31,162 bases of DNA. Source: Cytophagales bacterium (GTDB taxonomy: Bacteria; Bacteroidota; Bacteroidia; Cytophagales; JAAEPT01). This document shows, piece by piece, positions 3,674-26,149 of this stretch; positions within the stretch are counted from its first letter, which is position 1; each line of letters begins with the position of its first letter. The notes under the pieces are model-generated. The model worked only from the letters and a program-made list of their open reading frames with translations, was not told the DNA's origin and ran no database searches. Made by a program: the position numbers and the translations under genes. The DNA lies in contig JAAEPT010000013.1 of NCBI GenBank assembly GCA_024232295.1, forward strand, positions 1 to 31,162. The letters run 5' to 3'.

Positions 3674-3679
3674 CATAAT

Positions 3680-6196: not shown

Positions 6197-6198
6197 GA

Positions 6199-6765: not shown

Positions 6766-6843
6766 AATCTCTTATTTGATAAAGCTTTCACTATTATTTG
6801 TTCGAATTTAAAAAAATTAGATGATATTTATCTATCAAACCCT

Positions 6844-6851
6844 ATTTTTGA
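6844..6851 (+). promoter_or_regulatory. Candidate Bacteroidetes-type -7 promoter box TATTTTTG for the 6885 operon
   Basis: It matches the TAnnTTTG -7 consensus of Bacteroidetes sigma-A promoters, about 34 nt upstream of ATG 6885. No clear -33 TTTG was seen. Confidence 0.25.
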
Positions 6852-6884
6852 AAGAATTTTATCTGATTGTTTAACTTTTAGTTT

Positions 6885-11061: not shown

Positions 11062-12570
11062 ATAATAATGATATAGCATTGGATTGGATGTTGTATTCAC
11101 CTTAACAGTAGACAAATCCATTTCACTTTTTCCAAAAGAAGTAATCAATAGCATTCCATCATTATTCAACCATTTTGTTTTTACATCATCAAAATGAAGA
11201 GACCTTAATGCCTTTTTTAATCCTTCTTTGTCCAGTGATTTATGACCAATCACAAAACCCCATTCTCCTAATGTAAGCACTTGATTATGAATTGGAGCTG
11301 TAGAAAACCCTGCAGATTCCATGGTGATATCAATACAATGAAATGCTTTGGTTGCAAACTGAGGCGAACCTGCTTGTGTAATAATTGCACCATTTGGTCT
11401 TAATTGATGATAACACAATTGATAAAATTCCTTAGAATACAACTTGGACAAATCAACAGATTTTGGATCTGGCAAATCCACAAAAATTGCATCATAAAAA
11501 TCTTTTGTTTGCTCTAAGAACTGAAAACCATCTTGATTAATAATTGTCAATTTTTCCGTTTCTAATGCTCCTTTGTTTAATGCTTTCAAAACAGGGTGAC
11601 TTCTTCCTATTTCTGTCATTTTAGGGTCTAAATCCACCATTGTAATTTTTTCTACAGATGGATATTTAAGCATTTCTCGAACAGCACAACCATCACCACC
11701 ACCCAAAATCAAAATATTTTTAGGCTGGTTTGCCATTTTCATCACAGGGTGTACTAATGGCTCATGATACAACCATTCATCTAGACTTGATAATTGCTGA
11801 TTACCGTTGATAAATAACCAATGATGGTCTTTCCATTGAGTAATGACAATTTTTTGATACTTACTTTGGTGTTGATAAATAATTTTTTCACGATAACGAG
11901 ATTGTTCACCGAACATCATAATAGGTTTAGCAAAGTAAATTCCAACAGCTAAAATAAGTGCAACTCCGAAACCCAATAATTGAAATAAGCGAAATCTAGA
12001 AATATGGCTTTTGAATCTAAAAAATAATAGAAATGCCACCAAGAAGTTAATTGCTCCCAATACAAATGGTGTATAAGTAAGCCCTAAGAATGGAATACCA
12101 ATAAAAGCAAAAAAACCTCCTCCTAGTAAACTACCAAAATAATCAACAGCCATTACAGAAGAGATATTTTCCCTTAAGTCTTGAAACTGTTCATTAATAC
12201 GAGTTACTAAAGGAATTTCCATTCCCACTAATAATCCCACAATAATACTTAGTAAATAAACAATAATTGCGGTGAACTCAGTAAGACCTGCTACAGTATA
12301 TACTACAATTGCAGAAAATGAAGAAAAAATGGATAACAGAAATTCTAAAATTAGAAATTTCTCTAATAACTTATCCTTAAAATATTTACTCAATTGACTA
12401 CCTAATCCCATTGAAAACATCATCACTGAAATAATCAATGTCCATTGTAATAGTTGGTTTCCCAAAAAATAAGATGCTAAAGTAGAAAGTGTGTATTCTG
12501 CTACAATTCCAGCAAAACCTGTAGCAAAAAGAGCAATCTTTAATAAATGTGATTTTGAATTTTGATTCAT
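11035..12570 (-). CDS. Membrane-anchored polyamine aminopropyltransferase (spermidine synthase-like), paralog 3
   Basis: LILGGGDGCAVREMLKY, TMVDLDP and FVDLPDPKS are SpeE motifs. The N-terminal half is multi-TM. Its 3' end overlaps the convergent oxidoreductase gene by 27 nt. Confidence 0.85.
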   Translation of the reverse strand: MNQNSKSHLLKIALFATGFAGIVAEYTLSTLASYFLGNQLLQWTLIISVMMFSMGLGSQLSKYFKDKLLEKFLILEFLLSIFSSFSAIVVYTVAGLTEFTAIIVYLLSIIVGLLVGMEIPLVTRINEQFQDLRENISSVMAVDYFGSLLGGGFFAFIGIPFLGLTYTPFVLGAINFLVAFLLFFRFKSHISRFRLFQLLGFGVALILAVGIYFAKPIMMFGEQSRYREKIIYQHQSKYQKIVITQWKDHHWLFINGNQQLSSLDEWLYHEPLVHPVMKMANQPKNILILGGGDGCAVREMLKYPSVEKITMVDLDPKMTEIGRSHPVLKALNKGALETEKLTIINQDGFQFLEQTKDFYDAIFVDLPDPKSVDLSKLYSKEFYQLCYHQLRPNGAIITQAGSPQFATKAFHCIDITMESAGFSTAPIHNQVLTLGEWGFVIGHKSLDKEGLKKALRSLHFDDVKTKWLNNDGMLLITSFGKSEMDLSTVKVNTTSNPMLYHYYLNGNWGMY

Positions 12571-12585
12571 TGCCTTAAAAAGAAA

Positions 12586-12619
12586 AATGGTAACTGTGCA
12601 AGTTACACAATTACCATTT
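12586..12619 (-). promoter_or_regulatory. Intra-operonic hairpin between the lipoprotein gene and SpeE-like paralog 3. The 9-bp stem AAATGGTAA/TTACCATTT encloses a nested GTAACT/AGTTAC mini-hairpin, followed on the minus strand by a TTCTTTTT tract about 15 nt before the ATG.
   Basis: Perfect inverted repeat 12586-12594 / 12611-12619. The inner repeat is 12592-12597 / 12600-12605. It looks like a terminator or attenuator. Confidence 0.4.
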
Positions 12620-12642
12620 CATTATACTTTGATATTATTAGA

Positions 12643-13389
12643 TTATTTACCAAATCCTCCACCGCTAGAACGGTAACTTCTGCTACTATTATAACGAGAA
12701 GTACCACGAGCAGAAGCTCTAGATCTTCTTGCTGAAGAAGATGAAGAAGACCATCCACTTTTATTTGCTCTACGAGAGAAGAAATCAGGACGCTTAGATT
12801 TATTGTAAGCACTATTTGTTCCATACTGAGGATTACTTACATTAGAACCATAGTAAGGACGACTTCCTCTGTATACACTAGAGTATGTACTGTAGTGATT
12901 ACGGTATACTCTACGAGAATGATCCATACCCAACATTGGAGACATATAAGAATAACGAGAATAGAAAATCCAAACTCCACCATTCCAAGAACCATAACGA
13001 GAGTTTCCAACATAACTATTGTATCCTGGAGGAGATGGTACTTTAGAAACTTTTCCATCTTCAGACTTAGAAGCTAACTCCATACCCAAATAATTTTCGT
13101 TTCTCCAGAAAAATGCTTTCGAAACTTTGATCTTATCTGTAGTCTTTTCGGTAATCTCATCACCTTTCTCTGTCAAAATCTTGTATTTATGATAGTATGT
13201 ATCAGAAAAAATACCTTCATCTACATCCATATCTTCTAAAATAATACTAAAAGATTTCTCATCCTTCATTTGCTTGATAAGCTTATCAACAGGAGTTTCT
13301 TTGTACTTAGGCCCACCACAGCTACATGAAGATAAAAAGGCTAAGCCCATAGAAATAATACTTAATAAAAATAAGTGTCTCATAATCAT
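12643..13389 (-). CDS. Lipoprotein with a Tyr/Ser/Arg/Gly-rich low-complexity C-terminal tail
   Basis: The signal peptide plus lipobox is LAFLSSCSCGG. There is a globular N-domain, and then YSRYSY...SSSSSARRSRASARGTSRYNSSRSYRSSGGGFGK. The biased codon repeats spawn spurious ORFs on both strands here. Confidence 0.7.
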   Translation of the reverse strand: MIMRHLFLLSIISMGLAFLSSCSCGGPKYKETPVDKLIKQMKDEKSFSIILEDMDVDEGIFSDTYYHKYKILTEKGDEITEKTTDKIKVSKAFFWRNENYLGMELASKSEDGKVSKVPSPPGYNSYVGNSRYGSWNGGVWIFYSRYSYMSPMLGMDHSRRVYRNHYSTYSSVYRGSRPYYGSNVSNPQYGTNSAYNKSKRPDFFSRRANKSGWSSSSSSARRSRASARGTSRYNSSRSYRSSGGGFGK

Positions 13390-13405
13390 TTATTAATCTA
13401 TAAAT

Positions 13406-13960
13406 TTAGTTTGCCACTGGAATGATATTCGAAATTTCAAACTCCTCGATATAAACACCTACAGAAGCTTCAATTTCGTATTCCCCCCAACGATCAATTC
13501 CAATGAATTTTTTTTCTGTTTGATCCAAAAACTCCCAATTTACTACTTTAGACCAACTATCATCATAATTTGGATCATCTTCCCAATCACGACAGTGCCC
13601 TAAATTTTCACTTGATAAGTAATAAGTTTCACCTTTATACTCAATTCGTTTCATTGGTTCATCATCCTCCACAATATCATGCTTTAAGTTTTTGTCAATA
13701 GACATGATATTCACTTTTTCAGAGATAGATAATTCCAACTCATCTTCATCAGCTACATACAAATAACGAACTTCATCTCCGCTATCTAGCTTGTATTCTT
13801 TTGCATAAAAGTTATTTCCCCAGTCATACTCATAAATCTCCTTTACTTGCCATGACTTTAAGAAGTAGTCAATAAAGTCTCCTTCTTGTAAATTGCGAAC
13901 AGTAACCTCCCCTCTAGAAGGCTTCTCTTCCTTTTTATTGAAAAAATCAAATAAACCCAT
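13406..13960 (-). CDS. Hypothetical acidic cytoplasmic protein (184 aa); first gene of the second three-gene cassette
   Basis: N-terminus MGLFDFFNKKEEK, then TVRNLQEGDFIDY...YDWGNNFYAKEYKLDSGDE. No TM. It lies 16 nt upstream of the lipoprotein gene on the same strand. Confidence 0.65.
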   Translation of the reverse strand: MGLFDFFNKKEEKPSRGEVTVRNLQEGDFIDYFLKSWQVKEIYEYDWGNNFYAKEYKLDSGDEVRYLYVADEDELELSISEKVNIMSIDKNLKHDIVEDDEPMKRIEYKGETYYLSSENLGHCRDWEDDPNYDDSWSKVVNWEFLDQTEKKFIGIDRWGEYEIEASVGVYIEEFEISNIIPVAN

Positions 13961-14036
13961 AAATTTTCCTTTTTAAACTTAGACGAAAGATAACAAATAT
14001 TTTTTTGTATCTTGTTTTTTTTAAACGAAAAAATAG

Positions 14037-14435
14037 ATGAACAAACCCGAAAAAAATCTTGGGCAACATATTCTTGCTGAATTTTATGAGTGTGATGCTG
14101 ATATATTGAATGATGTCGATTTTTTGGAAAAGACATTTAATGAGGCATCAGAGGCAGCAAATGCAACAATTGTAAAATCTGTATTTCACCCTTTTTCACC
14201 TGTAGGTGTTACAGGAGTAGTTGTAATCATGGAGAGTCATATTTCTATTCATACATGGCCTGAGTTTGGTTATGCGGCAGTAGATTTTTTCACATGTAGT
14301 GATAAAATGCAATATCAGAAAGCATATGACTATATCGCAAACAAGTTAAAATCAAAAAATCACACTTCTCAAAAAGTAGAAAGAGGTTTTCCTCAGCATC
14401 TCAAAGAAACACACTTAATGAATAGTATATTATAA
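14037..14435 (+). CDS. speH: S-adenosylmethionine decarboxylase proenzyme, pyruvoyl-dependent, small SpeH/class 1 type
   Basis: HILAEFYECD and VVIMESHISIHTWPE are present. The predicted self-cleavage site is Glu-Ser at nt 14232-14237. Size is 132 aa. Confidence 0.9.
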   Translation: MNKPEKNLGQHILAEFYECDADILNDVDFLEKTFNEASEAANATIVKSVFHPFSPVGVTGVVVIMESHISIHTWPEFGYAAVDFFTCSDKMQYQKAYDYIANKLKSKNHTSQKVERGFPQHLKETHLMNSIL

Positions 14436-14445
14436 GAAGGAAGAT

Positions 14446-15243
14446 TTACTCTTCCTTTTTTTCATTTAAGTTATTTAGTCTATCCAATAAAGTTTGGACT
14501 TGCTTTTCTAATTGTACAACTCGGTACTCAATATTTTTAGTTTTCTTAAAAAATGTAGTGTACCTACCACAAAGCTCCCAAACTTCCAATACTTCATTTT
14601 TTCCAAGTTCCATGGTATCATAAGTAATATTATCAGCTTTTAATGAAATCAAGTGGTCAACAGATACAACTCGTCTTGTAAAAACACCATGGTTCGCAAC
14701 AAAAACATAGACTCTATTTAATTCAATATCTCGAATATCAACAGATTTTGTAATTAGAATATCACCATTATACATTCCACCACTATCCATCAACATTTCA
14801 CTACCTTTCAATTCAAAAGCACGAACCCTTCCTTCTGAAATTCTTTCTGGAAATTCAACAATTGGTAGTTTTGAGATATAATCCATTACCTTACATTTAT
14901 TACAGTAATCCTTATATTCTTTAATTTTTACCAAAGGAATACTCTTTTCTGTATGAACTTTCTTTTCTTTTTCTGAAGCTACAGAAGAAGACAATGCCTT
15001 TCTCTCTTTAAATATATCAAAATGATAAACATCATTTACCGTCAGCTCTTTTGTAAGCAAATCACCAATTGCTACTCCAAAATGATTGGCTATTTGAATA
15101 ATTGTATCAATTTTGGGATCAGCTCTTCCTTCTTCATAAGCTCCAACACTTGTACGAGCAAGGTCAAATTTTTTGGCAAATGCTGCTTGACTTAGCTTTC
15201 TAACTGTACGAATCTTTCGTATATTCTTACCTATATATGACAT
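14446..15243 (-). CDS. XRE-family HTH transcriptional regulator with a C-terminal S24 (LexA/CI-like) peptidase-fold domain and a coiled-coil tail
   Basis: The N-terminal IRKIRTVRKLSQAAFAKKFDLARTSVGAYEEGRADPKIDTIIQIANHFGV is a Cro/C1 HTH. ELKGSEMLMDSGGMYNGDILI resembles the LexA GDSM...GDLV core. It is divergent from the yjfI/pspA-like operon. Confidence 0.75.
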   Translation of the reverse strand: MSYIGKNIRKIRTVRKLSQAAFAKKFDLARTSVGAYEEGRADPKIDTIIQIANHFGVAIGDLLTKELTVNDVYHFDIFKERKALSSSVASEKEKKVHTEKSIPLVKIKEYKDYCNKCKVMDYISKLPIVEFPERISEGRVRAFELKGSEMLMDSGGMYNGDILITKSVDIRDIELNRVYVFVANHGVFTRRVVSVDHLISLKADNITYDTMELGKNEVLEVWELCGRYTTFFKKTKNIEYRVVQLEKQVQTLLDRLNNLNEKKEE

Positions 15244-15552
15244 ATTTCAAAGATAATCTATTTTTTTTGACATCAAAATCCGCTAAAGGAAACAAATAGC
15301 CAACATTTTGAGATTATCTATGTTTTTTTAGAAATTATTTTGCCAATATTTTTGGATATTCCAGTTTTCTTAGTACCTTTACAATGTCAAAAGGAAATAA
15401 CGGGAACAAAATGAAGAAAAATACATACAAAAGCAGTCACCCTCCATAACTTAGAGCCCTGCTGTTTTATAAAAATTTAAAATTGAATATTTGGATTTCG
15501 TTTAGTAACTTAAAACAAGTATTTAGAATTTTTAAAATAAACACAAAGAATC

Positions 15553-15948
15553 ATGGAAAGTAACTTTTTAAAAGTAAAAGATTACATTTTAGAATTACAG
15601 TACGATATCGTACACGAAAGTGCAGAAGATGGGGTATTCGTAATCAACAAAGCAACTGAAGGAATTTCAAACTTAGTTATCTGTTGTGCAGAACCTATCT
15701 TAATTATTGAACAGTTTTTGTTTGAGTTATCAGGAGATGCAAGTGCTATTCACAAAGAGCTCCTACAAAAAAGCAGAGATATTATCCACGGAGCTTTCGT
15801 ATTAGACGAAACAGGAACAAAAGTAATCTACCGTGATACTTTGCAATTAGAAAACCTTGACCTTAATGAATTAGAAGGGACATTTAACTCTCTTGCCGTT
15901 TTATTAAGTGAATATGGTGATAAAATTATCGAATTTTCCAACAATTAA
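15553..15948 (+). CDS. Small acidic cytoplasmic protein; YjfI-like (T3SS-chaperone-like fold) partner of PspA, assigned by size and position
   Basis: 131 aa, no TM, placed 11 nt upstream of the PspA-family gene. This matches the E. coli yjfI-yjfJ arrangement (YjfI is 133 aa). Sequence-level family assignment was not verified. Confidence 0.45.
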   Translation: MESNFLKVKDYILELQYDIVHESAEDGVFVINKATEGISNLVICCAEPILIIEQFLFELSGDASAIHKELLQKSRDIIHGAFVLDETGTKVIYRDTLQLENLDLNELEGTFNSLAVLLSEYGDKIIEFSNN

Positions 15949-15959
15949 AATTTAAGACT

Positions 15960-16676
15960 ATGAACATATTTAAAAGATTATTCAAAATTGGTGAAGCTGA
16001 AGCTCATTCTGCAGTAGATAAATTAGAGGATCCTATCAAAATGACGGAACAAGGTATCCGTGATATGAAAAAAGATTTAGATAAAAGTTTACATGCATTA
16101 GCTGAAGTGAAAGCATTAGCAATTCGTTCTAAAACTGATTTAAATTCATATAGAAGTAAAGTTTCTGACTACGAGAAAAAAGCAATGGCTTTATTACAAA
16201 GAGCTGAGCTTGGTCAAGTTTCTCCAGAAGAAGCTGATCGTTTAGCATCTGAAGCTTTGGTTAAAAAAGAAGAGAGCCAAGGTCAAGTAGATAGATTATC
16301 TTCTGAGCAAGCTACTTATGATAAGCAAGTTGGTCAGTTAGAGGCAAGTGTAAGAACAATTCGTTCAAATATTAGTAAGTGGGAAAATGAGTTGAAAACA
16401 TTGAAAGCTCGTGTAAAAGTAAGTTCTACTACTAAAAACTTAAACAAGCAATTAGCTCAAATTGATTCTACTAGCACAGTAGCTATGTTAGAAAAAATGA
16501 AGAACAAAGTTGCTGAAGAGGAAGCTTTAGCTGAGTCTTATGGAGAAATCGCAAACGCTAGTAAGAGTGTTGACGATGAGATTGACAAAGCATTAGAAGG
16601 TTCTGCTGAAGTAAAAGCACATGATTCATTAGCTGCATTAAAAGCGAAGATGGCTGCCAACAAATCTAACCTATAA
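15960..16676 (+). CDS. PspA/IM30 (phage shock protein A / Vipp1 / ESCRT-III superfamily) protein, YjfJ-like
   Basis: The N-terminal MNIFKRLFKIGEAEAHSAVDKLEDPIKMTEQGIRDMKKDL is the typical PspA family start. The whole 238 aa is heptad coiled-coil with a low-complexity C-terminus. Confidence 0.85.
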   Translation: MNIFKRLFKIGEAEAHSAVDKLEDPIKMTEQGIRDMKKDLDKSLHALAEVKALAIRSKTDLNSYRSKVSDYEKKAMALLQRAELGQVSPEEADRLASEALVKKEESQGQVDRLSSEQATYDKQVGQLEASVRTIRSNISKWENELKTLKARVKVSSTTKNLNKQLAQIDSTSTVAMLEKMKNKVAEEEALAESYGEIANASKSVDDEIDKALEGSAEVKAHDSLAALKAKMAANKSNL

Positions 16677-16691
16677 TAGAAGGTTATATAA

Positions 16692-17444
16692 TTGACATTT
16701 TTAAAAAAGTCCAATACATTGCACGCCAATGGTTGGGCTTTTTTTACCCTAATTTTTCCAAGTTATATGATAGAACTATTCAAGTACTCTTTTGCCTACA
16801 TCAATTTAATACCTACTTGCCTGTTACTTTTAACCCTTATCTATTGGTTTTGCACAATATTAGGAGCATTAGATTTAGGTTTTTTGGATTTTGACCTTGA
16901 ACCAGATGGTGAAATAGATGTAACTATGGATGTTGAAATCAGTGGACCAAATGTTGAAGTTGATTCAGAAACAGGAAGTATTCCTGTTGGCTATTCTATA
17001 CTAGGTTTTTTCAACATAGGAAAAATTCCTTTTATGCTGTTCTTTACATTACTTTCCACTCCTATGTGGTTCATTTCAATTGTAGGAAATTATTACCTAG
17101 GAATTGAAAACTTTGTTTTATCATTAGCCCTATTAGCTGGTAACTTTTTTGTCAGTATGCTAATCGCAAAATTTATTAGTACTCCATTTGTTTATATTTT
17201 CAAAAAAATGGCAGAAAATGAAGAAGACTCTTTTACTCCTATAGGAAAAGTATGTACAGCAAAATATACTATCGATTCATCATCGTATAGTCAAGCCATT
17301 GTGATTGGCAAAAATGGAGCTGATCATATTATTACAGTCAAAACCTATGAAGGAAAAGAAATCAAAAAAAATGAACATGGCTTGGTAATAGAACATGATG
17401 AAGAAAATAACTTCTATACGGTTGAACCACATCAAAAATTGTAA
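16692..17444 (+). CDS. NfeD/YqiJ-like membrane protein: N-terminal TM helices plus a C-terminal beta-rich OB-like domain
   Basis: It has hydrophobic helices, then KVCTAKYTIDSSSYSQAIVIGKNGADHIITVKTYEGKEI. It sits immediately upstream of the flotillin gene, as in E. coli yqiJ-yqiK. The true start may be an internal Met such as 16767. Confidence 0.55.
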   Translation: MTFLKKSNTLHANGWAFFTLIFPSYMIELFKYSFAYINLIPTCLLLLTLIYWFCTILGALDLGFLDFDLEPDGEIDVTMDVEISGPNVEVDSETGSIPVGYSILGFFNIGKIPFMLFFTLLSTPMWFISIVGNYYLGIENFVLSLALLAGNFFVSMLIAKFISTPFVYIFKKMAENEEDSFTPIGKVCTAKYTIDSSSYSQAIVIGKNGADHIITVKTYEGKEIKKNEHGLVIEHDEENNFYTVEPHQKL

Positions 17445-17483
17445 AATCTTAAACTTTTTATAAACGTAAATATAGTAACTCAA

Positions 17484-19649
17484 ATGAACCTTTATCTTTT
17501 ACAAGCATCAATGCTCGAAAATGCGGGATTGACAATAGCACTTATTGTTGTCTTTTTCTTTGTAGGATTTATTGCTTTTATCCTCAAAATGTATAAAAAA
17601 TCTTCTCAAGGAGAAGCAATTGTACGTACAGGTATGGGAGGTACCAAAGTATCTTTTAGTGGAATTTTTGTCTTTCCTGTTATTCATCAAATGGAAAGAA
17701 TGGATATTACATTGAAAAAAGTAACTATTTCTCGTCAAGGAAAAGATGGACTAATCTGTAGAGACAACTTAAGAGCAGATATCCAAGTAAATTTCTTCAT
17801 TCGTGTAAATAACAATGAACCTGATGTTAACAAAGTAGCTAAATCTATTGGTTGTAAACGTGCATCTGACCCAACTGCTCTTATTGAATTATTTGATGCA
17901 AAGTTTTCAGAAGCATTAAAAACAGTAGGTAGACACTTTGATTATGTAGACTTATACAATTCTCGTGAAGAATTCAACAAGAAAATCACAGAACAAATCG
18001 GAAAAGATTTGAATGGTTATGGTTTAGATGACTGTGCTATTGATTACCTAGAACAAACTCCAATTAGTTCATTAGATGAACAAAACATCTTAGATTCTGA
18101 AGGTATCAAGAAAATAATTGACCTTACTTCTGAAGAGAAAATCAAAGCAAACTTGATTCTTCGTGACAAAGAAAAAACAATTAGACAACAAGATGTTGAA
18201 GCAAGAGAGACAATCTTAGAGTTAGATAGACAACTTGCTGAAAAAGAAGAGAAACAACATAGAGAAATTGCAAATATTAAAGCAGTTGAAGATGCTGAGA
18301 AAATTCGTGTAGAACAAGAAGAACGATTAAAAGCAGAACAAGCTCGTATCTCTACACAGGAAGCATTAGGAATTTCGGAAGAAAACAAAATGCGTGAAAT
18401 CTTAATTGCTCAAAAAAATAAAGAAAAAACTGTTGCTGTTGAAAACGAACGTGTAGAAAGAGAAAAGCAGTTAGAAGAAACTGAACGTTTAAGAATTGTG
18501 GAATTAGCACAAATCGAAAAAGAAAAAGCTCTTGAAGAAGAACGTAAAAACATTCAAGATGTAATTCGTGAACGTGTAATTGTAGAGAAAGCAGTAGTTG
18601 AAGAAGAAGAAAAAATCAAAGATACTAAAGCTTTAGCTGAAGCTGACCGTGAAAAAGATGTTGCGTTAAAAGAAGCAGAAAAAGATGCTCAAGAAGCCTT
18701 AATTAGACAAACAAAACAAGCAGAGGCTTCTAAGCAAGCTGCTGAATTTAGAGCTAAACAAGTTCAAATCGAAGCAGAAGCAGAACAAACTTCTGCCTTG
18801 AAGAAAGCAGAGGCAATCAAAGTATTAGCTGATGCAGAGGCTTCTAAACAAGCTGCTGTTGGTTTAGCTGAGGCTCAAGTAATGGAAGCAAAAGCAGAAG
18901 CAAAAGAAAAAGAAGGTGAAACTGAAGCAAGAGTATTAGAGCTTAATGCTCTGGCTGATGCGAAAGGTATTCGTGAACGTTCTCTTGCTCAAGCTGAAGC
19001 TGATCTACAAATCGGACAGGCTGATGCACAAGTTATTGAAGCAAGAGCAAGTGCTGAAGAGAAAAAAGGATTAGCTGAAGCCAAAGTACTTCAAGAAAAA
19101 CTAGCTTCTGAAGCTAAAGGTATTGAAGAGAAAGCTGCTGCTATGCAGAAATTGGATGGTGTAGGTAGAGAGCATGAAGAATTCAAATTACGCCTAGAGA
19201 AAGAGACAAAAGTAGATTTAGCTCATATTCAAGTTCAAAAGGATATTGCAGAAGCACAAGCAACTGTATTAGCTGAAGCAATGAAATCTGCTAAAATTGA
19301 TATTGTTGGTGGTGAACCAGTAATTTTTGATAAGATTATGGGTGCTATTGCTAAAGGAAAATCTATTGATAGATTAGTAGATAACAGTAAAACTGTAGAG
19401 CAAATCAAAGACACTTTCTTTGACACTTCTAATGGTGGTTCTTTCAAAGAAAACTTAGCAAACTTCATTGACCAATTCAACATTGACTCTGAAACAGTTA
19501 AGAATTTAAGTGTAGCTACATTACTCAACACATTATCAAAGGAACATGAAAGTGATCCAGCAAAAATCAAACAATTAGAAGAGTTTGGAAAAATTGCTAA
19601 TGTATTGGGAATAGCTAATCAAGCAATTGGAAGCTTAGGTATTCTTTAA
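17484..19649 (+). CDS. Flotillin family (SPFH/band-7) protein with a long Ala/Glu/Lys-rich coiled-coil
   Basis: It has an N-terminal TM and an SPFH core (GGTKVSFSGIFVFPVIHQMERMDITLKKVTISRQGKDGLICRDNLRADIQVNFFIRV). Extensive EA-repeat coiled-coil follows (about nt 18150-19200). Confidence 0.9.
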   Translation: MNLYLLQASMLENAGLTIALIVVFFFVGFIAFILKMYKKSSQGEAIVRTGMGGTKVSFSGIFVFPVIHQMERMDITLKKVTISRQGKDGLICRDNLRADIQVNFFIRVNNNEPDVNKVAKSIGCKRASDPTALIELFDAKFSEALKTVGRHFDYVDLYNSREEFNKKITEQIGKDLNGYGLDDCAIDYLEQTPISSLDEQNILDSEGIKKIIDLTSEEKIKANLILRDKEKTIRQQDVEARETILELDRQLAEKEEKQHREIANIKAVEDAEKIRVEQEERLKAEQARISTQEALGISEENKMREILIAQKNKEKTVAVENERVEREKQLEETERLRIVELAQIEKEKALEEERKNIQDVIRERVIVEKAVVEEEEKIKDTKALAEADREKDVALKEAEKDAQEALIRQTKQAEASKQAAEFRAKQVQIEAEAEQTSALKKAEAIKVLADAEASKQAAVGLAEAQVMEAKAEAKEKEGETEARVLELNALADAKGIRERSLAQAEADLQIGQADAQVIEARASAEEKKGLAEAKVLQEKLASEAKGIEEKAAAMQKLDGVGREHEEFKLRLEKETKVDLAHIQVQKDIAEAQATVLAEAMKSAKIDIVGGEPVIFDKIMGAIAKGKSIDRLVDNSKTVEQIKDTFFDTSNGGSFKENLANFIDQFNIDSETVKNLSVATLLNTLSKEHESDPAKIKQLEEFGKIANVLGIANQAIGSLGIL

Positions 19650-19669
19650 TTTTATTTTAACAATACTTT

Positions 19670-19707
19670 GCCTGATATTTCCTTTTGGGGAGTATCAGGC
19701 TTTTTTT
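19670..19707 (+). terminator. Rho-independent terminator-like hairpin between flotillin and the giant ORF (stem GCCTGATA/TATCAGGC, 15-nt loop, then T7)
   Basis: Perfect 8-bp inverted repeat 19670-19677 / 19693-19700, followed by TTTTTTT at 19701-19707. Confidence 0.6.
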
Positions 19708-19737
19708 ACACTTTTTTTACTCATTTAGTACACTGTA

Positions 19738-22700
19738 ATGAACGAAGAAAACATACAATTAGAAGGAGGTACATACGAAATTCTCAAAAATCGTTTACTG
19801 CAAGAAGGTTCTCAACTTCGAGAAAAACTACAAGACCTTAATATTGCTAGACAAGATGTATTTGGAGCTATTCAAACACAGCTTATATCAAATGAGCGTA
19901 TTACCACAGAAAACAATTGTATTCCTTGGGATATGTGCCCTATCCACAATCGTTTTCTATTTGGATACAATGTTTTTTTAGGATTAAAGACAGAAATTAA
20001 ATTAAGTGATGTTTTTAGTTATTATGAATACCAAGACCATCAATTCCACCAAGAAGAATTAAAAATATTAGAAGATGATAATTTTCTAAGTGATTTTAAT
20101 AATCTATATAAGTATTATAAGAGCGCTCAATTTGTACGATTTTTTAAGCGAGACTTGTACTTATACATGATTTTTAGAATCAGTAAAGAAGTTAATGATA
20201 TCAAAGCCTTCAAATGGGAAATTGGTAGTGATGGCTCATTAACTTATATAGATGCTAGAAGTGATCATGAAATCAAATATCCTGCACAGCATGAGTTTAG
20301 TTGGAAAAAAACAACTCGTGAGATGCATAGAAAAGGATTACACCCTCACATCTCTATAGAAGATAAAATTTTTGTAGAAACAATTGGTGGAGATTTAACA
20401 ATTAAAGTTGAGGATAATACAAATATTGGTAAAGGTATCTTCTCAGAAGCAGTTAAGAATCCAGGACAGACATTAGATGATGCAGAGTTTAATTATGCAA
20501 TTATTGATAATCTAATTGTCTTGAGAGTCAAACCTTATCAAGAAAATGAGTATCGCTATATTGTTTATAATGAAAAATTACAAGAGGCAAAAAGAATTGA
20601 TGCTCTAAAAGAATCTTGTATTTTCTTACCTGAGGGTCATGGACTAATCTTCGCCAATGGTTATTACCTACAAACTGGTGAATTCAAACTTTTCGACCAT
20701 GATCTAAAGAATTTATTGTTTGAAAGACAAATCTCATCTCCTAATGGTGAAGATTATCTATATGTCTTTTACAATCGTCTACATGGTATTTACTTATTAT
20801 TGTCTTATAATATCATTGAACAAACAATTAGTACCCCTATCATTTGTCATGGTTATGCCATCTTTGATAATGGAGAATTGTGTTATTTTAAAGCAGATGA
20901 AGAGGCTAAAAAACATCACAGTATTCAAATTTGGCAAACCCCTTATATTCATTCTGATTTTGAAATTCAAGCTAATAAAGAGTCTTATTTATATAAAATA
21001 GGAAATAAGGATATTGTGAAGGCAATGGCTGATGCTCATGGTATTCTAAACTTATTAGATAAAGACGATAGTTATGGTAATCTGTATTTGGATATTCTAA
21101 AAGAATCAAATGATACACTAGATTCTCATTATTGGTTAACTAGTGAAGAAGCCTTCAATTTAGCAGAGCCAATTACTGAGATTAAAAATACAGCAAAGTC
21201 TGCTATTGATGAGTTTGAAAAAGTTCTAACAATTCGTAAAAACACAACTCAACGAATTCAGGAAGTTAGTCAAGAAACAGAAAGCTTATTACAAGAAGTT
21301 AGACGTTCTACTCCAAAACATATTGACGAATATGTTCAATTTTTAGGAAAATTACGTTTAGCAAGAGGTGAGGTCATTTCCCTTAAAGAATTACGTTATA
21401 CAAACTTACCTCTCATTGACAAACTAGAGGAAGAAGTTGCTCAAGCTAGTGCAAACACTTCTGAAGGTTGTGTTAAGTTTTTAGTAAAAAAAGAAGCACT
21501 ACAACCTTATGAACAAAAAGTAGAAGATATTAATCAAACGATTGATAAACTTGAAAAAGTTATTGATGCAACAAGGATTGAAGAAAAAATTGATGCTACT
21601 TCCAAAGAATTAGAATTATTGATTGAGATTGTGAGTAATCTAAAAATTGAAGATGCTACACAAACTACTCAAATCATTGATAATATTTCAGCTATTTATG
21701 CTCGTTTCAATCAAATTAAGGTTTCCTTAAAAAGAAAAAAGAAGGAATTACAGAGTGTAGAAGGTAAAGCTGAATTTAATGCTCAACTCAAATTAATTCA
21801 ACAAGGCCTTATCAACTATCTTGATGTATGTGATAAACCAGAAAAATGTGATGAATATTTAACCAAATTAATGGTTCAGCTTGAGGAATTAGAAAGTAAA
21901 TTCTCTGAATTTGATGAGTTTATTGAACAAATTACTATCAAGCGTGAAGAGGCTTATAATGCTTTTGAAGCCAAGAAAGTTGCTTTAATTGAAGCAAGAA
22001 ACAAACATTCAAATGCTCTTTTAAATTCTGCTAATCGTATTTTGAAGTCTGTACAAAATCGTGCAAAAAACTTCAAAGAACTCAATGAAATCAATGGTTA
22101 TTTTGCCTCTGACTTAATGATTGATAAGGTCAGAAATGTAGTTGAGGAATTAGTAGAAATTGGAGATACTGTAAAAGCTGACGATATTCAGAGTCGTTTA
22201 AAATCTACACAAGAAGATGCTATTCGTCAATTGAAAGATAAGCAAGAGTTATTTGTAGATGGTGAAAATGCAATTCAATTAGGAAGTCATAGTTTCCTTG
22301 TTAATAAACAAAGCCTTACCTTAACAATTGTTCCAAGAAATGAAGAATTATCTTTTCATTTGACTGGAACAAACTTCTTTGAAAAGATTAAAAATGAAAA
22401 ACTAAATAGTTATCAACATTTTTGGGAACAAGATTTAGTTTCAGAAAACAAAAAAGTATATCGTGGAGAATATTTAGCTTATCAAATCTTTTTGGAGGCT
22501 AAAGAAAAGAAAGAGCTTCTTCAACAATTAGCTCAATCTACTGAGAAAGAAAACCTACAATTTGTACAACAGTTCATGTCTGTTCGCTACAATGAGGGAT
22601 ATATCAAGGGAGTACATGATGTTGATGCTGATAAAATATTAGGGCAACTAATACAGCTTTATCAAACAGCTGATTTACTTCATTATTCTTCTGATTCAAG

Positions 22701-25206
22701 AACCTTAGCAAAACTATGGTGGACTGAATTTCTAGAAGAAAGCATCAAAAAGGATTTTGATCAACAATTAAAAGGTGCTGGTTTATTATTACAAGTTTTT
22801 CCACAGAACACAGCTTTTGAAGAATTAAAAGAAGAACTTCAACAAGCAATTCAGCCTTTTGTTGAAGAAAGTGCTTTGTTTGATGTAAGTAGTATTGAAG
22901 AAGCAATTGATTATCTTTTTGATGAATGTACAAGAGGAAATCAGTTTATCATACATTATGAAGCTCATAAAGTTTGTCAAGATTTCATACAGTATCTTAA
23001 AGAGCATCAACAAGAAAAAATATTCCAAAAGTCTATTGATGGACTAAAAGGAAATAAAATAGCTCAATACCAGTTGATAAAAAATTGGGTTCTTGCTTTT
23101 GTGGGCTCTCACTCACTTGATTGTAATGAACACTTGAATGAAATTGCTTCTTGTTTGTTCTCACAAAATCACAATGGTAATCAAGTTATTCATACACAAT
23201 TACAAACAACTATTGAAGGTTTACAAGGGAATCATGATACCATTGTAAAACAAGCTTATGCACTTCATTATAATCAATTTATTCAGAAAATGGAGCATTA
23301 TGTCTCGCATACTGTTCCTGAATACTTGCATTATATTCAACTGAAAAAAGACTTAACTCAGCAATTTGAAGCAGAACTACGACTCAATGAGTTTAAGCCT
23401 CGTGTGATGAGTTCTTTTGTTCGTAATGAATTACTTGATAAGGTTTATTTACCAATTATTGGAAATAACTTAGCCAAACAAATGGGTACTGCTGGAGCAA
23501 ATAAGCGTACTGATTTGATGGGTATGTTGCTCTTGCTCTCTCCTCCTGGATATGGTAAAACAACTTTAATGGAATACATTGCCAATCGTTTGGGCTTGAT
23601 TTTCATGAAAATTAATGGTCCTGCTATTGGTCATCAAATTGTTTCGCTTGACCCTGCTGAAGCTCAAAATGCTGGTGCAAAAGAAGAATTGAAAAAGCTA
23701 AACCTTGCTCTTGTAATGGGAGACAATGTAATGCTTTATTTAGATGATATTCAGCACTGTAATCCTGAGTTTTTACAGAAGTTTATTTCTCTTTGTGATG
23801 CTCAACGAAAAATTGAAGGGGTTTATAAAGGACAACCTAAAACCTATGACTTTAGAGGGAAAAAAGTAGCTGTTGTAATGGCTGGTAACCCATACACAGA
23901 AAGTGGTGATAAGTTCCAAATTCCAGACATGCTTGCCAACCGTGCAGACATCTACAATTTGGGAGATATTTTGGGTGATTCAGAAAATGCCTTTAAATTA
24001 AGTTATTTACAAAACTGTCTTACTTCCAATGCTGTATTAAGTAAAATTGCGAGTAAAACACCAAAAGATGTTTTGACTTTGGTGCGTATTGCAGAAACAG
24101 GAAGTCAAGAAAACATCAACTTTGAAGGAAATCATTCTAAAGCAGAAATTAATGAATATCTTTCTGTTGTTAAAAAGTTATTAACAATACGAGATGTGGT
24201 TCTAAAAATGAATTTGGCTTATATTGATTCTGCTGCACAAGCTGATGAATACAGAACAGAGCCTCCTTTCAAGCTTCAAGGTTCTTATCGTAATATGAAT
24301 AAATTAGCAGAAAGAGTGGTTCCAATCATGAATGATGATGAATTACAAACGTTGATTATTTCTCATTATGAAAATGAAGCTCAAACATTAACTACTGGTG
24401 CAGAAGCCAATTTATTAAAGTTTAAGGAGTTAGTTGATATTTTGAGTGAAGAGGAAATATTAAGATGGGAAGATATCAAAAAGACCTTTGCAAGAAATAA
24501 TAAATTAAAGGGGATTGGGGGCGAAAGTTTTGGACAAATTCTATTACAAATGGAATCTATTTCTGAAGGACTTTCTTCTATTAGTCATCAATTAAAAGAT
24601 CGAAACAACTCTTCTACTCCTACTATGACTAATACAGAAGTTCCTCAAAATACTTCAATTGTTGTAGAACAGGAAACAAATGAAGAATTGGTAGGTATTT
24701 TGAAAGTTTTGCAGGAAAATCAACAAAAGATTGTTACTGAGTTGGTAGAGCAAAAAGACATTCAAGACCAACAATTGCATAAGGTTCAACAAAAGGAAAT
24801 TGCTGAACACAAACAAAAAGAAGAACAAGAAGCTCTTTTAGAAAAGGTTCTTAAAGAAGAAAAAGAAAAACTAAGTGTACTAAGGAATCAATTGACAGTA
24901 GCTATCAAAGAAAAAATTCTGATTGAAGATACAGAAGATAGTCACTTTAGCTATTTATTTGCTTTCGAAAACAAGACTGAACAGAAGATCAAAGGTTTTG
25001 TAGGAACATTAGAATTCAGAAGTAGTGAAGGTATCATTGTGCATAACCTTAGTGTTAGCTATGAGGAAGGCATTGAACCTTTGGGTACTGTGCAATGGGA
25101 AGCACAAATGGAATTCAATCCATTCTTAGAAAAAGACATTCTTTTGAAAAATATGAGTATTGATGAACTACAAACAATATGGATTCCTAAGAAAATCCTC
25201 TTTTAG
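19738..25206 (+). CDS. Giant 1822-aa protein with an internal MoxR/AAA_5-like AAA+ ATPase domain (about aa 1240-1450) and long coiled-coil regions
   Basis: It is a single uninterrupted ORF. Walker A is LLLSPPGYGKTTLMEY (nt 23541-23570). Walker B is VMLYLDDIQHCNPEFL (nt 23733-23780). The NP motif VAVVMAGNPYTE (nt 23870-23900) is typical of MoxR/dynein-related AAA+. There are coiled-coil stretches (aa about 480-760, about 1640-1720) and a beta-rich C-terminus. Confidence 0.8.
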   Translation: MNEENIQLEGGTYEILKNRLLQEGSQLREKLQDLNIARQDVFGAIQTQLISNERITTENNCIPWDMCPIHNRFLFGYNVFLGLKTEIKLSDVFSYYEYQDHQFHQEELKILEDDNFLSDFNNLYKYYKSAQFVRFFKRDLYLYMIFRISKEVNDIKAFKWEIGSDGSLTYIDARSDHEIKYPAQHEFSWKKTTREMHRKGLHPHISIEDKIFVETIGGDLTIKVEDNTNIGKGIFSEAVKNPGQTLDDAEFNYAIIDNLIVLRVKPYQENEYRYIVYNEKLQEAKRIDALKESCIFLPEGHGLIFANGYYLQTGEFKLFDHDLKNLLFERQISSPNGEDYLYVFYNRLHGIYLLLSYNIIEQTISTPIICHGYAIFDNGELCYFKADEEAKKHHSIQIWQTPYIHSDFEIQANKESYLYKIGNKDIVKAMADAHGILNLLDKDDSYGNLYLDILKESNDTLDSHYWLTSEEAFNLAEPITEIKNTAKSAIDEFEKVLTIRKNTTQRIQEVSQETESLLQEVRRSTPKHIDEYVQFLGKLRLARGEVISLKELRYTNLPLIDKLEEEVAQASANTSEGCVKFLVKKEALQPYEQKVEDINQTIDKLEKVIDATRIEEKIDATSKELELLIEIVSNLKIEDATQTTQIIDNISAIYARFNQIKVSLKRKKKELQSVEGKAEFNAQLKLIQQGLINYLDVCDKPEKCDEYLTKLMVQLEELESKFSEFDEFIEQITIKREEAYNAFEAKKVALIEARNKHSNALLNSANRILKSVQNRAKNFKELNEINGYFASDLMIDKVRNVVEELVEIGDTVKADDIQSRLKSTQEDAIRQLKDKQELFVDGENAIQLGSHSFLVNKQSLTLTIVPRNEELSFHLTGTNFFEKIKNEKLNSYQHFWEQDLVSENKKVYRGEYLAYQIFLEAKEKKELLQQLAQSTEKENLQFVQQFMSVRYNEGYIKGVHDVDADKILGQLIQLYQTADLLHYSSDSRTLAKLWWTEFLEESIKKDFDQQLKGAGLLLQVFPQNTAFEELKEELQQAIQPFVEESALFDVSSIEEAIDYLFDECTRGNQFIIHYEAHKVCQDFIQYLKEHQQEKIFQKSIDGLKGNKIAQYQLIKNWVLAFVGSHSLDCNEHLNEIASCLFSQNHNGNQVIHTQLQTTIEGLQGNHDTIVKQAYALHYNQFIQKMEHYVSHTVPEYLHYIQLKKDLTQQFEAELRLNEFKPRVMSSFVRNELLDKVYLPIIGNNLAKQMGTAGANKRTDLMGMLLLLSPPGYGKTTLMEYIANRLGLIFMKINGPAIGHQIVSLDPAEAQNAGAKEELKKLNLALVMGDNVMLYLDDIQHCNPEFLQKFISLCDAQRKIEGVYKGQPKTYDFRGKKVAVVMAGNPYTESGDKFQIPDMLANRADIYNLGDILGDSENAFKLSYLQNCLTSNAVLSKIASKTPKDVLTLVRIAETGSQENINFEGNHSKAEINEYLSVVKKLLTIRDVVLKMNLAYIDSAAQADEYRTEPPFKLQGSYRNMNKLAERVVPIMNDDELQTLIISHYENEAQTLTTGAEANLLKFKELVDILSEEEILRWEDIKKTFARNNKLKGIGGESFGQILLQMESISEGLSSISHQLKDRNNSSTPTMTNTEVPQNTSIVVEQETNEELVGILKVLQENQQKIVTELVEQKDIQDQQLHKVQQKEIAEHKQKEEQEALLEKVLKEEKEKLSVLRNQLTVAIKEKILIEDTEDSHFSYLFAFENKTEQKIKGFVGTLEFRSSEGIIVHNLSVSYEEGIEPLGTVQWEAQMEFNPFLEKDILLKNMSIDELQTIWIPKKILF

Positions 25207-25217
25207 ATAATAAAAAG

Positions 25218-25260
25218 AAACCCCTTGACCAAATTAGAATTAAGGGGTTTTTTATTTTTT
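25218..25260. terminator. Bidirectional rho-independent terminator between the convergent giant ORF and the OM protein gene
   Basis: AAACCCCTT (25218-25226) pairs with AAGGGGTTT (25242-25250) around a 15-nt loop, followed by TTTTTATTTTTT. An A-run lies upstream for the opposite strand. Confidence 0.7.
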
Positions 25261-26149
25261 AGTCTTCTTTATTAAGAAGAAATCGATAAGCCATTCGTAT
25301 TTGAAAACCTGTTCTAAAGTCAGTATTTATATTATTTTCTAGCGTTCGTTGATCGTTAGCAATTGAACCAACCACTGACCACAAAGATGGATAATCCTCA
25401 TAACGTGAATAATCCTTGATTGCATAAACAAATATAGCTTGTAATATCAATGTTTCATTCAAAAGATCAATTTGAATATAAGGCAAAATATCACGAGTAT
25501 TCACATGATAGTAAGCGTTTTCATATTGTGTTTGATTAAAACCAAGATTTGTAGCTCTTACTGTTGTTCCCACTCTAATATTTTTATAAAAGCGATAATT
25601 CATATCCAGATACATTGGTAAATAATAATCAAATTCCCAACGTTTCTTTGGAGAGCGATAATAAAAACCTAGTATTGGTGTGAAGTTATTTCCATAGGCT
25701 TCTGTTGTATAGTATGCTCCAAAACGCCAAGTGAAATAATCATTCTTCTTGTAAGAACTTACTGTCCAAGCACCTAATTGATAAGCATCACTTCCTGCAT
25801 TTAAATCAGAAGCAATCTTAGGCAAGAAAATAAAGTTAGAAGACCACTTCTCAGAAAACTTATAATTTAGTCCCAACTGTAAAGTAAAAGAGTATAAACT
25901 AATTTTTTCATCATCACCAATTGAATTGGCTACATTGTGGTATGCTTGATCAAGACCTGTAATAATAGCTACATCATCATTAATGACAATAGGGGCTTTT
26001 AACTTCAAACTTTGATATTGTACTACATCATCTCCTGTATCTACTTGCTCATAATAGGCACGAACAAGACTCACATAATCTTGAGCAAAAATAAAAGTAC
26101 TTGTAAATAAGAAAAATGATAAAAATGAGATAATTCTATACATAGGCAT
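25259..26149 (-). CDS. Putative outer-membrane beta-barrel protein with signal peptide
   Basis: The signal peptide is MPMYRIISFLSFFLFTSTFIFAQD. It shows alternating aromatic/hydrophilic beta-strand pattern and is Tyr/Asn/Gly-rich, 296 aa. Confidence 0.55.
   Translation of the reverse strand: MPMYRIISFLSFFLFTSTFIFAQDYVSLVRAYYEQVDTGDDVVQYQSLKLKAPIVINDDVAIITGLDQAYHNVANSIGDDEKISLYSFTLQLGLNYKFSEKWSSNFIFLPKIASDLNAGSDAYQLGAWTVSSYKKNDYFTWRFGAYYTTEAYGNNFTPILGFYYRSPKKRWEFDYYLPMYLDMNYRFYKNIRVGTTVRATNLGFNQTQYENAYYHVNTRDILPYIQIDLLNETLILQAIFVYAIKDYSRYEDYPSLWSVVGSIANDQRTLENNINTDFRTGFQIRMAYRFLLNKED

Follow-up and report, generated by a model that had tools for sequence, protein, structure and literature searches.

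Two separable units in a CesT/Tir-PspA, YqiJ, flotillin, and giant AAA+ ATPase operon type of a Cytophagales genome

Two open questions about bacterial membranes are how the ESCRT-III-like polymers of PspA and Vipp1 are disassembled, for which no Vps4-like ATPase is known in bacteria (PMC7619361), and what the actual job of the bacterial flotillins is. Both are raised by a gene array at positions 15553-25206 of a 31,162-bp contig of a Cytophagales metagenome-assembled genome, where a very large and exceptionally conserved ATPase is encoded beside both a PspA protein and a flotillin. The whole contig was analyzed and is referred to as the window, in which all positions are given. An initial annotation described the array as a PspA-centred membrane module, and the locus poses the question of whether the ATPase belongs with PspA or with the flotillin. 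With even confidence, we interpret the region as an operon type of two separable units, combining a CesT/Tir-PspA pair, YqiJ, a flotillin, and a beta-propeller/coiled-coil AAA+ protein, in which a flotillin/YqiJ platform would be remodeled in an ATP-driven manner and PspA would act as an accessory effector.

Five open reading frames (ORFs) were confirmed on the plus strand at the coordinates initially given. They are separated by short gaps of 11, 15 (90 with the ATG start of the third gene), 39, and 88 nucleotides (nt), and their family assignments held at the family or superfamily level in profile searches, hhalign, and BLASTP comparisons. The elements of the locus are as follows, with the five genes of the array numbered in their order:

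11035-14435, mixed strands: linked polyamine block (Pfam, lipobox, and transmembrane (TM) analysis)
14446-15243, minus strand: divergent regulator with an XRE helix-turn-helix (HTH), a LexA-like S24 domain, and a C-terminal coiled coil (Pfam, family hidden Markov model (HMM))
15244-15552: divergent intergenic region of 309 nt, presumed promoter and operator
15553-15948, plus strand: gene 1, CesT/Tir-like small protein of 131 amino acids (aa) (Pfam CesT_Tir_1)
15960-16676, plus strand: gene 2, PspA/IM30 protein of the bacterial ESCRT-III superfamily, 238 aa (Pfam PspA_IM30)
16767-17444, plus strand, with the ORF open from TTG 16692: gene 3, predicted divergent YqiJ/DUF1449 (NfeD-like) membrane protein (family profile, hydropathy)
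17484-19649, plus strand: gene 4, YqiK-type flotillin, 721 aa (Band_7, BLASTP to YqiK)
19670-19707, plus strand: terminator-like hairpin (folding energy against shuffled sequences)
19738-25206, plus strand: gene 5, giant soluble AAA+ protein, 1,822 aa (DUF3686, DUF7902, AAA/AAA_5)

Two sets of loci were compared with the window. The genome set was obtained from an ATPase alignment scan of one genome per GTDB species, where at least 550 loci were confirmed and the best 80 were kept; the metagenome set was obtained from contigs scanned with the CesT-like protein, where the best 80 of more than 449 matches were kept. Both sets are biased toward relatives of the window, and the frequencies given here are indicative rather than population estimates. 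The 80 genome loci included representatives of the Bacteroidota, Planctomycetota, Verrucomicrobiota, Desulfobacterota, Clostridia, Omnitrophota, and Kiritimatiellota. Their ORFs were searched with the window proteins, and 65 loci were informative, having at least 3.2 kb of upstream sequence. Of these 65, 59 had the order YqiJ, flotillin, ATPase (the triad), with at least seven phyla represented. The complete array of CesT, PspA, YqiJ, flotillin, and ATPase was found in 22 loci, all from the Bacteroidota, covering the Cytophagales, Flavobacteriales, Sphingobacteriales, and Hymenobacteraceae. The conservation in related genomes that the initial annotation had made the test of its proposal was therefore borne out, and the gene order is far beyond chance.

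The remaining 37 triad loci, which included every sampled phylum outside the Bacteroidota, had neither a CesT nor a PspA gene within 10 kb upstream in the same orientation (in L020 a PspA gene lies on the opposite strand, and in L023 PspA occurs without a detectable CesT). Conversely, among 39 classifiable metagenome loci, the gene following CesT and PspA was YqiJ of the triad in 26, DUF4178 in eight, and another gene in five; in the eight metagenome loci with DUF4178, the unit of regulator, CesT, and PspA was joined directly to the polyamine block without the triad. In L116, L121, L134, and L143, the triad was flanked by PspA on one side and the polyamine block on the other, in the manner of an inserted cassette, and the six-gene layout was additionally found on more than ten long metagenome contigs. 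The locus is hence modular: an autonomous and widespread flotillin/YqiJ/ATPase triad is, in many Bacteroidota, set within a regulator-CesT-PspA-polyamine operon. The ATPase travels with YqiJ and the flotillin without PspA, and the regulator-CesT-PspA unit is likewise found where the triad is missing; the flotillin and the ATPase, and not PspA as initially annotated, therefore form the center of the module. The ATPase accompanied YqiJ and the flotillin with no CesT or PspA within 10 kb in all six groups other than the Bacteroidota.

This distribution bears on an analogy drawn at the outset, in which PspA would be the center of an ESCRT-III/Vps4 analogue, the ATPase would be a dedicated motor for PspA polymers, and the flotillin and YqiJ would provide only a membrane platform. 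PspA and the ATPase do share a co-directional array in the window and in the 22 Bacteroidota genomes, and the resemblance to the archaeal and eukaryotic systems consists of an ESCRT-III-superfamily gene (PspA) near an AAA+ gene. Moreover, according to a 2025 review, bacteria appear to have no Vps4-like ATPase, which leaves the role unfilled (PMC7619361), and ATP-dependent remodeling has also been suggested for PspA-AAA+ associations (PMC11237479). However, the conserved partner of the ATPase is the flotillin rather than PspA, given the 37 loci described above, and CesT-PspA was found without the ATPase in at least eight loci. Nor does any C-terminal feature tell the PspA proteins of the two contexts apart, and their LAxLKAKM tail is shared with the PspA of E. 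coli, where an ATPase of this kind is missing. The properties of the ATPase itself, described below, likewise speak against a Vps4 analogue, and we consider it quite unlikely.

Gene 5 was matched by Pfam DUF3686 (E=1.4e-188), by DUF7902, and weakly by a single AAA/AAA_5 region at residues 1264-1387. In the AlphaFold model of residues 1-1200 (predicted local distance difference test (pLDDT) 83), an N-terminal helix and the propeller are followed by very long helices, and the model of residues 1151-1822 (pLDDT 75) includes one AAA+ module with its lid, then a coiled coil and a beta-sandwich. The predicted order of domains is as follows:

N-terminus: helix
Residues ~48-400: beta-propeller (DUF3686)
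Residues ~417-836: helical/coiled-coil region, including DUF7902
Next: small beta domain
Residues 909-1142: helical domain
Residues ~1220-1620: single AAA+ module
Residues ~1640-1822: clade-specific coiled coil and beta-sandwich

The last of these is common only to the nearest relatives (P0002-P0006). No TM segment was found by hydropathy, so that any action of the ATPase on membranes must go through partner proteins. More than 4,600 homologs were identified at E<=1e-5, mostly of ~1,640-1,660 aa, and identity across phyla is 45-61% over ~1,600 residues. When the AAA+ module alone was searched against 1.84 billion proteins, 929 representative clusters were matched, 370 of them at E<=1e-30, and the module was located at ~residues 1,200-1,650 in full-length matches; by this measure, it is confined to the giant-ATPase architecture. 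Searches of the PDB with the single ATPase sequence and with a profile returned P-loop-level matches only, and no solved structure of the family. The N-terminal model also resembled protocoatomer proteins in Foldseek (IFT-A, clathrin heavy chain, and nucleoporins, E=1e-6 to 1e-4), a candidate relationship that was rejected, as the TM-scores were 0.06-0.13 and the propeller is followed by long single helices and not a solenoid; the similarity is a generic one between propeller-plus-helix proteins, seen also with WD40 proteins.

Within the AAA+ region, the motifs GYGKTT (Walker A), LDD (Walker B), AGNP, and NRAD were invariant in alignments of 15 and 26 sequences. From their positions, AGNP probably provides the sensor-1 Asn and NRAD the Arg finger. 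The pore-loop-1 position has no aromatic residue (GPAIGHQIVSLDP). A beta-hairpin is modeled at residues 1358-1371, between the post-Walker B helix and the strand leading into AGNP, with moderate local confidence. A pre-sensor-1 hairpin of this kind is a hallmark of the HCLR/MoxR/dynein superclade, and classical AAA ATPases such as Vps4 lack it. In structure comparisons, the best match of the C-terminal model was the MoxR protein NorQ, and NorQ, ClpB, and Lon resembled the model more closely than Vps4 did. Together, the structure model, the hairpin, and the pore loop give moderate support to the initial assignment of a MoxR/AAA_5 rather than a Vps4 type. As no MIT domain was detected by Pfam, the pore loop is not aromatic, and the module is placed outside the classical AAA clade, the modeled ATPase is predicted not to be Vps4-like, and the analogy with Vps4 gained no specific support.

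Public databases list many of the homologs under the name "DNA repair ATPase". This label follows the Pfam description of DUF3686 ("ATPase involved in DNA repair"), and no domain, genomic context, or paper was found to back it; it looks like a propagated misannotation. If the giant protein were a DNA repair ATPase, its membrane-gene neighbors would be incidental. Apart from the names, weak P-loop matches to RuvB (E ~1e-5, below cutoffs) point in that direction, but the likeness spans ~45 residues around the P-loop. Searches of Pfam, NCBIfam, and PDB sequences detected no VWA, nuclease, helicase, or DNA-binding domain, the membrane-protein partners are conserved in 59 of 65 loci, and no paper mentioning DUF3686 was found in a literature search. 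A repair function is thus scarcely credible.

Large multi-domain ATPases with membrane effectors are also frequent in defense systems, and an anti-phage or abortive-infection system built of membrane proteins and a large NTPase was considered for the locus. The AAA+ region weakly matched mad8 in PADLOC (E=1.7e-4), and a variable slot of small ORFs is present between the flotillin and ATPase genes elsewhere. On the other hand, PADLOC-DB v2 returned only weak coiled-coil or P-loop matches (E>=7.7e-5), with those of PspA being coiled-coil noise. The array is surrounded by genes of housekeeping or metabolism (pseudouridine synthase, aminotransferase, ribosomal protein S1, and polyamine genes), a scan of the window revealed neither a GC anomaly nor any gene of a mobile element, and the conservation of the ATPase across phyla is unlike that of fast-evolving defense genes. 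A defense role is therefore extremely improbable.

The identity of the ATPase's constant partners was established with family profiles. Gene 3 is open from a TTG (16692-17444, 250 aa), but the start is more likely the ATG at 16767, which gives 225 aa, as in the NCBI product for this gene (P0121, 100% identical). Searched alone, gene 3 had no Pfam or NCBIfam match, even at E<=10. In an hhalign comparison with E. coli YqiJ, an alignment of 20 family members reached a probability of 96.5% (E=1e-9, 179 columns), which agrees with the NfeD/YqiJ assignment that had been a guess. Of these 20 members, nine matched Pfam YqiJ_N and one matched NfeD, and the homolog P0128 is named "DUF1449 family protein" by NCBI. 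Hydropathy indicated hydrophobic segments near ORF residues 39-57, 103-132, and 136-170, ahead of a conserved beta-rich C-terminus. The product is accordingly best described as a predicted divergent three-TM YqiJ/DUF1449 NfeD-like protein with a beta-rich, putatively OB-like C-terminal domain, and a member of its family was located upstream of the flotillin gene in all 59 triad loci. Gene 4 matched Band_7 in Pfam (E=3.6e-13, 50.4 bits against a cutoff of 23.6, residues 41-181), with a TM segment at residues 16-34 by hydropathy. It aligned with E. coli YqiK at 29% identity over 438 aa (BLASTP, E=4e-46), which extends beyond the SPFH domain, and included a long Ala/Glu/Lys-rich region, presumed to be a coiled coil. 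The C-terminal Pfam domain Flot (PF15975) was not matched by gene 4, even at E<=10.

The two genes at the head of the array were assigned similarly. Gene 1 matched Pfam CesT_Tir_1 (PF22550) over residues 1-130 of 131 (E=4.7e-51, 172.6 bits against a cutoff of 27), and its orthologs were 53-65% identical among 15 aligned Bacteroidota loci. It had been called YjfI-like. No match to Pfam DUF2170 was found, the gene belonging to a different Pfam family, and BLASTP against E. coli YjfI returned only a 28-residue non-colinear fragment that was not significant (E=0.029). The relationship of this type of protein to YjfI within the CesT/Tir superfamily is a published profile-profile claim (PMC11237479); gene 1 is thus YjfI-like only by position and at the superfamily level, and that part of the call stands. 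PspA was encoded directly 3' of the CesT gene in 22 genome loci and in most metagenome loci, and the CesT-like protein is an obligate upstream partner of PspA.

Gene 2 matched Pfam PspA_IM30 (PF04012) with E=2.7e-41 and 142 bits against a cutoff of 33.9, its residues 2-230 covering profile positions 1-217 of 220, which settles the family membership on which the initial annotation had relied. It was about equally distant from E. coli PspA (BLASTP, E=1e-12) and E. coli YjfJ (E=9e-10), and it did not reach the NCBIfam equivalog cutoffs of TIGR02977 (61.9 bits against 243) or LiaH (44.9 against 380). By these scores, gene 2 is classified as a member of the PspA/IM30 family and as an ortholog of neither E. 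coli PspA nor B. subtilis LiaH. At the C-terminus of PspA (window ~16630-16676), a conserved motif, (D/E)xLAxLKxx(L/M)G, follows a variable acidic linker and was present in 81 PspA orthologs from any genomic context. It was considered as a MIM-like motif for binding of the ATPase specifically and was rejected, as it is kept with or without the triad and E. coli PspA also ends in an LAQLKAKM tail.

The regulator matched HTH_3 (E=1.8e-10) and, under the gathering score, Peptidase_S24 (E=4.7e-4) in Pfam. It was divergently encoded upstream of CesT and intact in 21 of the 22 full-array genomes (truncated in L071), as well as in 42 of 49 metagenome loci. The family HMM aligned with residues 111-180 of E. 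coli LexA (E=2e-8), where the column of LexA Lys156 is Arg in 19 of 22 orthologs and no conserved Ser was aligned to LexA Ser119 in either alignment register. The protein is most likely a non-cleaving pseudo-protease repressor, the C-domain of which may serve for dimerization or sensing. Two 9-bp palindromes, AGATAATCT (15251-15259) and AGATTATCT (15311-15319), were observed 60 bp apart beside the start codon of the regulator. They had the look of operators and were absent from the 22 orthologous intergenic regions. Words of the TTTGCTAAT type recur in the regulator-CesT intergenic regions of the Flavobacteriales; they may merely be Bacteroidota promoter elements, and no operator is claimed for the region. 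An Rfam search of the whole window, including this intergenic region, returned no match, and a scan for sigma-70-type promoters yielded 48 sites compared to 52 in shuffled sequence, with a model that is ill-suited to the Bacteroidota.

From these families and their arrangement, a mechanism can be proposed, in which every contact between proteins is a suggested one. It is built on the flotillin and YqiJ because their association with the ATPase is constant. In the first unit, the widespread core of YqiJ, flotillin, and giant ATPase, the YqiK-type flotillin would form, at the cytoplasmic face of the inner membrane, an SPFH scaffold or cage. The three-TM YqiJ would anchor or regulate this structure by way of its NfeD-like C-terminal domain. 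The ATPase, a soluble protein, would dock on the scaffold through its propeller and coiled coil and spend ATP on assembling, opening, or taking apart the scaffold or its clients, as a MoxR-style remodeler and not a threading unfoldase. The second unit, which was specific to the Bacteroidota in the sample, comprises the HTH/pseudo-S24 regulator, the CesT-like protein, and PspA. The regulator would control the array, including PspA, and the CesT-like protein would hold PspA assembly-competent or in check. PspA could then be recruited to the flotillin platform and seal or reshape stressed membrane, by analogy with B. subtilis, where PspA depends on the SPFH protein YdjI to reach the membrane (cited in PMC10936438 and PMC7619361). 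Polyamine metabolism would be a linked input or output.

Several observations weigh against such a flotillin-based remodeling machine. The Walker B motif is an invariant Asp-Asp and not Asp-Glu, and ATP turnover could accordingly be slow or regulatory. MoxR ATPases are usually paired with a VWA protein, and no VWA domain was found in any of the window ORFs scanned. A terminator hairpin splits the flotillin gene from the ATPase gene, and stoichiometric co-expression is not guaranteed. In many other loci the same gap is 0.3-2.4 kb long and holds one to three small, mutually unrelated ORFs. To these are added the bias of both locus sets, as described above, and a literature search in which no experimental study of the ATPase, the operon type, or any component was found.

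The hairpin, which resembles a strong intrinsic terminator, consists of a 14-bp stem with a 3-nt loop (19670-19700), followed by T7. Its minimum free energy is -21.3 kcal/mol (z=-5.8), and none of 200 shuffled sequences folded as well. With this hairpin in the flotillin-ATPase gap, the co-directional genes are not necessarily one transcript. It is a candidate attenuator, which would lower the level of the ATPase relative to the structural proteins, and the ATPase may be expressed at a lower level than, or separately from, these abundant proteins. A comparable hairpin was found 3' of the flotillin gene in ~10 of 77 other loci. The loci from the Clostridia instead have flotillin and ATPase genes that adjoin or overlap one another (gaps of -10 to 13 nt), an arrangement that fits coupled expression. 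The small ORFs of the gap, found for example in L001, L004, L018, L029, L035, L040, and L042, behave as the contents of a variable insertion slot. An extra component encoded there, such as the PH_40 gene of Pontibacter, was rejected, since the ORFs are mutually unrelated and absent from the window.

The operon type itself has been described by comparative genomics. Ravi et al. (2024; mSystems, PMC11237479) presented it in their main text, and their Table S3 lists an identical layout in Dokdonia donghaensis (ANH61663.1), including a divergent "cHTH+Protease" gene. Abbreviated flotillin-YqiJ-(ATPase) operons were reported to be more widespread, an operon of spermine synthase, DUF4178, and lipoprotein was defined as a second CesT/Tir-PspA class, and a chaperone or remodeling reading was offered (PMC11237479). 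The gene content, order, divergent regulator, and phylum (Bacteroidota) are the same in the window, which is a further instance of an operon type known in silico only, with an association that is already published. Hence, the initial description of an uncharacterised system holds with respect to experiments and not with respect to its discovery. The window differs in having its polyamine block upstream of the regulator, in inverted orientation, and not downstream, in lacking a PspC/Toastrack neighbor, and in the extra C-terminal coiled coil and beta-sandwich of its ATPase. The earlier study included no AAA+ clade assignment, no mention of the loss of the S24 dyad, and no experiments (PMC11237479); added here are the flotillin and YqiJ as the constant partners of the ATPase with PspA as a lineage-specific addition, the MoxR-like appearance of the ATPase, and the probable pseudo-protease nature of the regulator.

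Parts of the array are recognizable in model organisms. In E. coli, as had been noted at the start, the counterparts are scattered, with yqiJK at 3.19 Mb and yjfIJ at 4.41 Mb. The NfeD-like multi-TM gene is directly upstream of the flotillin in E. coli yqiJ-yqiK and B. subtilis yuaF-floT, as in the window, whereas yqiK in E. coli K-12 is followed by sibD/ibsD and not by a giant ATPase. The flotillin of the window has 721 aa compared to 553 aa for YqiK, and its YqiJ homolog is too divergent for a Pfam match of its own. In a knockout paper on Shewanella SO1376/SO1377 (YqiJ/YqiK), the ATPase was not involved. To our knowledge, no bacterial pairing of an SPFH assembly with an AAA+ hexamer other than HflK/HflC with FtsH has been studied well. 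The HflK/HflC-FtsH pair offers a functional analogy for a flotillin scaffold with an AAA+ partner, which is one of resemblance only: FtsH, an AAA+ protease of the classical clade, is anchored in the membrane and HflK/C face the periplasm, whereas the ATPase of the window is soluble, lacks a protease domain, and has NorQ, ClpB, and Lon, and not the classical-clade ATPases, as its nearest structural neighbors. In B. subtilis pspA-ydjGHI, PspA and an SPFH gene share one operon, as in the window, but the partners YdjG and YdjH are zinc-ribbon and TPM-domain proteins (PMC11237479) and not CesT-like, YqiJ, or AAA+ proteins, and no ATPase is included. In E. coli yjfIJKLMC, a small CesT/Tir-superfamily gene precedes a PspA-family gene with a polyamine link, as in the window (PMC11237479). 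The polyamine genes differ, being the YjfC ligase, DUF350, DUF1190, and DUF2491 in E. coli compared to TM spermine-synthase-like, S-adenosylmethionine (AdoMet) decarboxylase, DUF4178, and lipoprotein genes in the window.

The polyamine link proposed initially is real and recurs in other genomes, and the adjacent polyamine genes share a functional neighborhood with the array. The genes of this neighborhood are as follows:

2600-3673: TrkA-N-gated K+ channel
4423-5979, minus strand: multi-TM spermine-synthase-like paralog
6885-8414, plus strand: multi-TM spermine-synthase-like paralog
8414-9529: multi-TM protein of 371 aa (p371), no Pfam match
9526-11061, plus strand: flavin amine oxidase
11035-12570, minus strand: multi-TM spermine-synthase-like protein (Pfam, TM analysis)
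12643-13389, minus strand: lipoprotein with an S/R/Y-rich tail (lipobox)
13406-13960, minus strand: DUF4178 (Pfam)
14037-14435, plus strand: AdoMet decarboxylase (Pfam)

A block of DUF4178, lipoprotein, and TM spermine synthase followed the ATPase directly in L005, L008, L030, L049, L082, L116, L121, L134, and L143, and the order of the polyamine block in metagenomes was DUF4178, lipoprotein, TM spermine synthase, AdoMet decarboxylase, and K+ channel. In the window, this block is inverted and located on the far side of the regulator. An alternative organization is suggested by these genes, in which a membrane homeostasis system linked to polyamines would be made up of the regulator, CesT, PspA, the polyamine genes, and the K+ channel, whereas the flotillin triad would be an independently acting cassette that came to lie in a permissive operon. 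It would account for the eight loci with the CesT-PspA dyad joined directly to the polyamine block and the four with the triad between them, and it is in line with the three TM spermine-synthase paralogs, amine oxidase, AdoMet decarboxylase, DUF4178, and K+ channel of the window, with the autonomy of the triad in other phyla, and with the polyamine operon as a separate CesT/Tir-PspA class (PMC11237479). Against it, 26 of the 39 classifiable metagenome loci and 22 genomes have the triad beside the dyad, and a neutral insertion is unlikely to persist so widely; for the functional coupling of an SPFH protein to PspA, B. subtilis also provides a precedent from experiments (cited in PMC10936438 and PMC7619361). 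We regard this alternative as unlikely, and retain the two-unit reading with ATP-driven remodeling of a flotillin/YqiJ platform.

A further step from the two-unit reading would be that the ATPase is the missing ATP-driven remodeler of bacterial membrane scaffolds, a non-homologous functional counterpart of Vps4 that docks on the flotillin/YqiJ platform and, in the Bacteroidota, disassembles or recycles PspA polymers. We consider this a long shot. If the ATPase were a scaffold remodeler acting on PspA, the locus would encode a complete and self-contained bacterial "ESCRT-III plus ATPase" machine, of an origin independent of the archaeal one. Direct testing is possible, as culturable carriers are found among Dokdonia, Leeuwenhoekiella, Maribacter, Aquimarina, Hymenobacter, and Pontibacter.

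Additional features were observed at the two ends of the array. The region 2600-14435 is an unusually dense polyamine gene neighborhood with three TM spermine-synthase-like paralogs. Its amine oxidase (plus strand) and spermine-synthase-like (minus strand) genes are convergent, their 3' ends overlapping by 27 nt (11035-11061), and homologs of the amine oxidase and p371 were also located near the ATPase in L005 and L008. On the other side, a gene on the minus strand (25259-26149) converges on the ATPase gene across a 52-nt gap, in which no terminator was detected. It encodes a 296-aa protein without a Pfam match, with an N-terminal signal-like hydrophobic segment and a high content of Tyr, Asn, and aromatic beta-strand-like repeats, and the product may be an outer-membrane beta-barrel.

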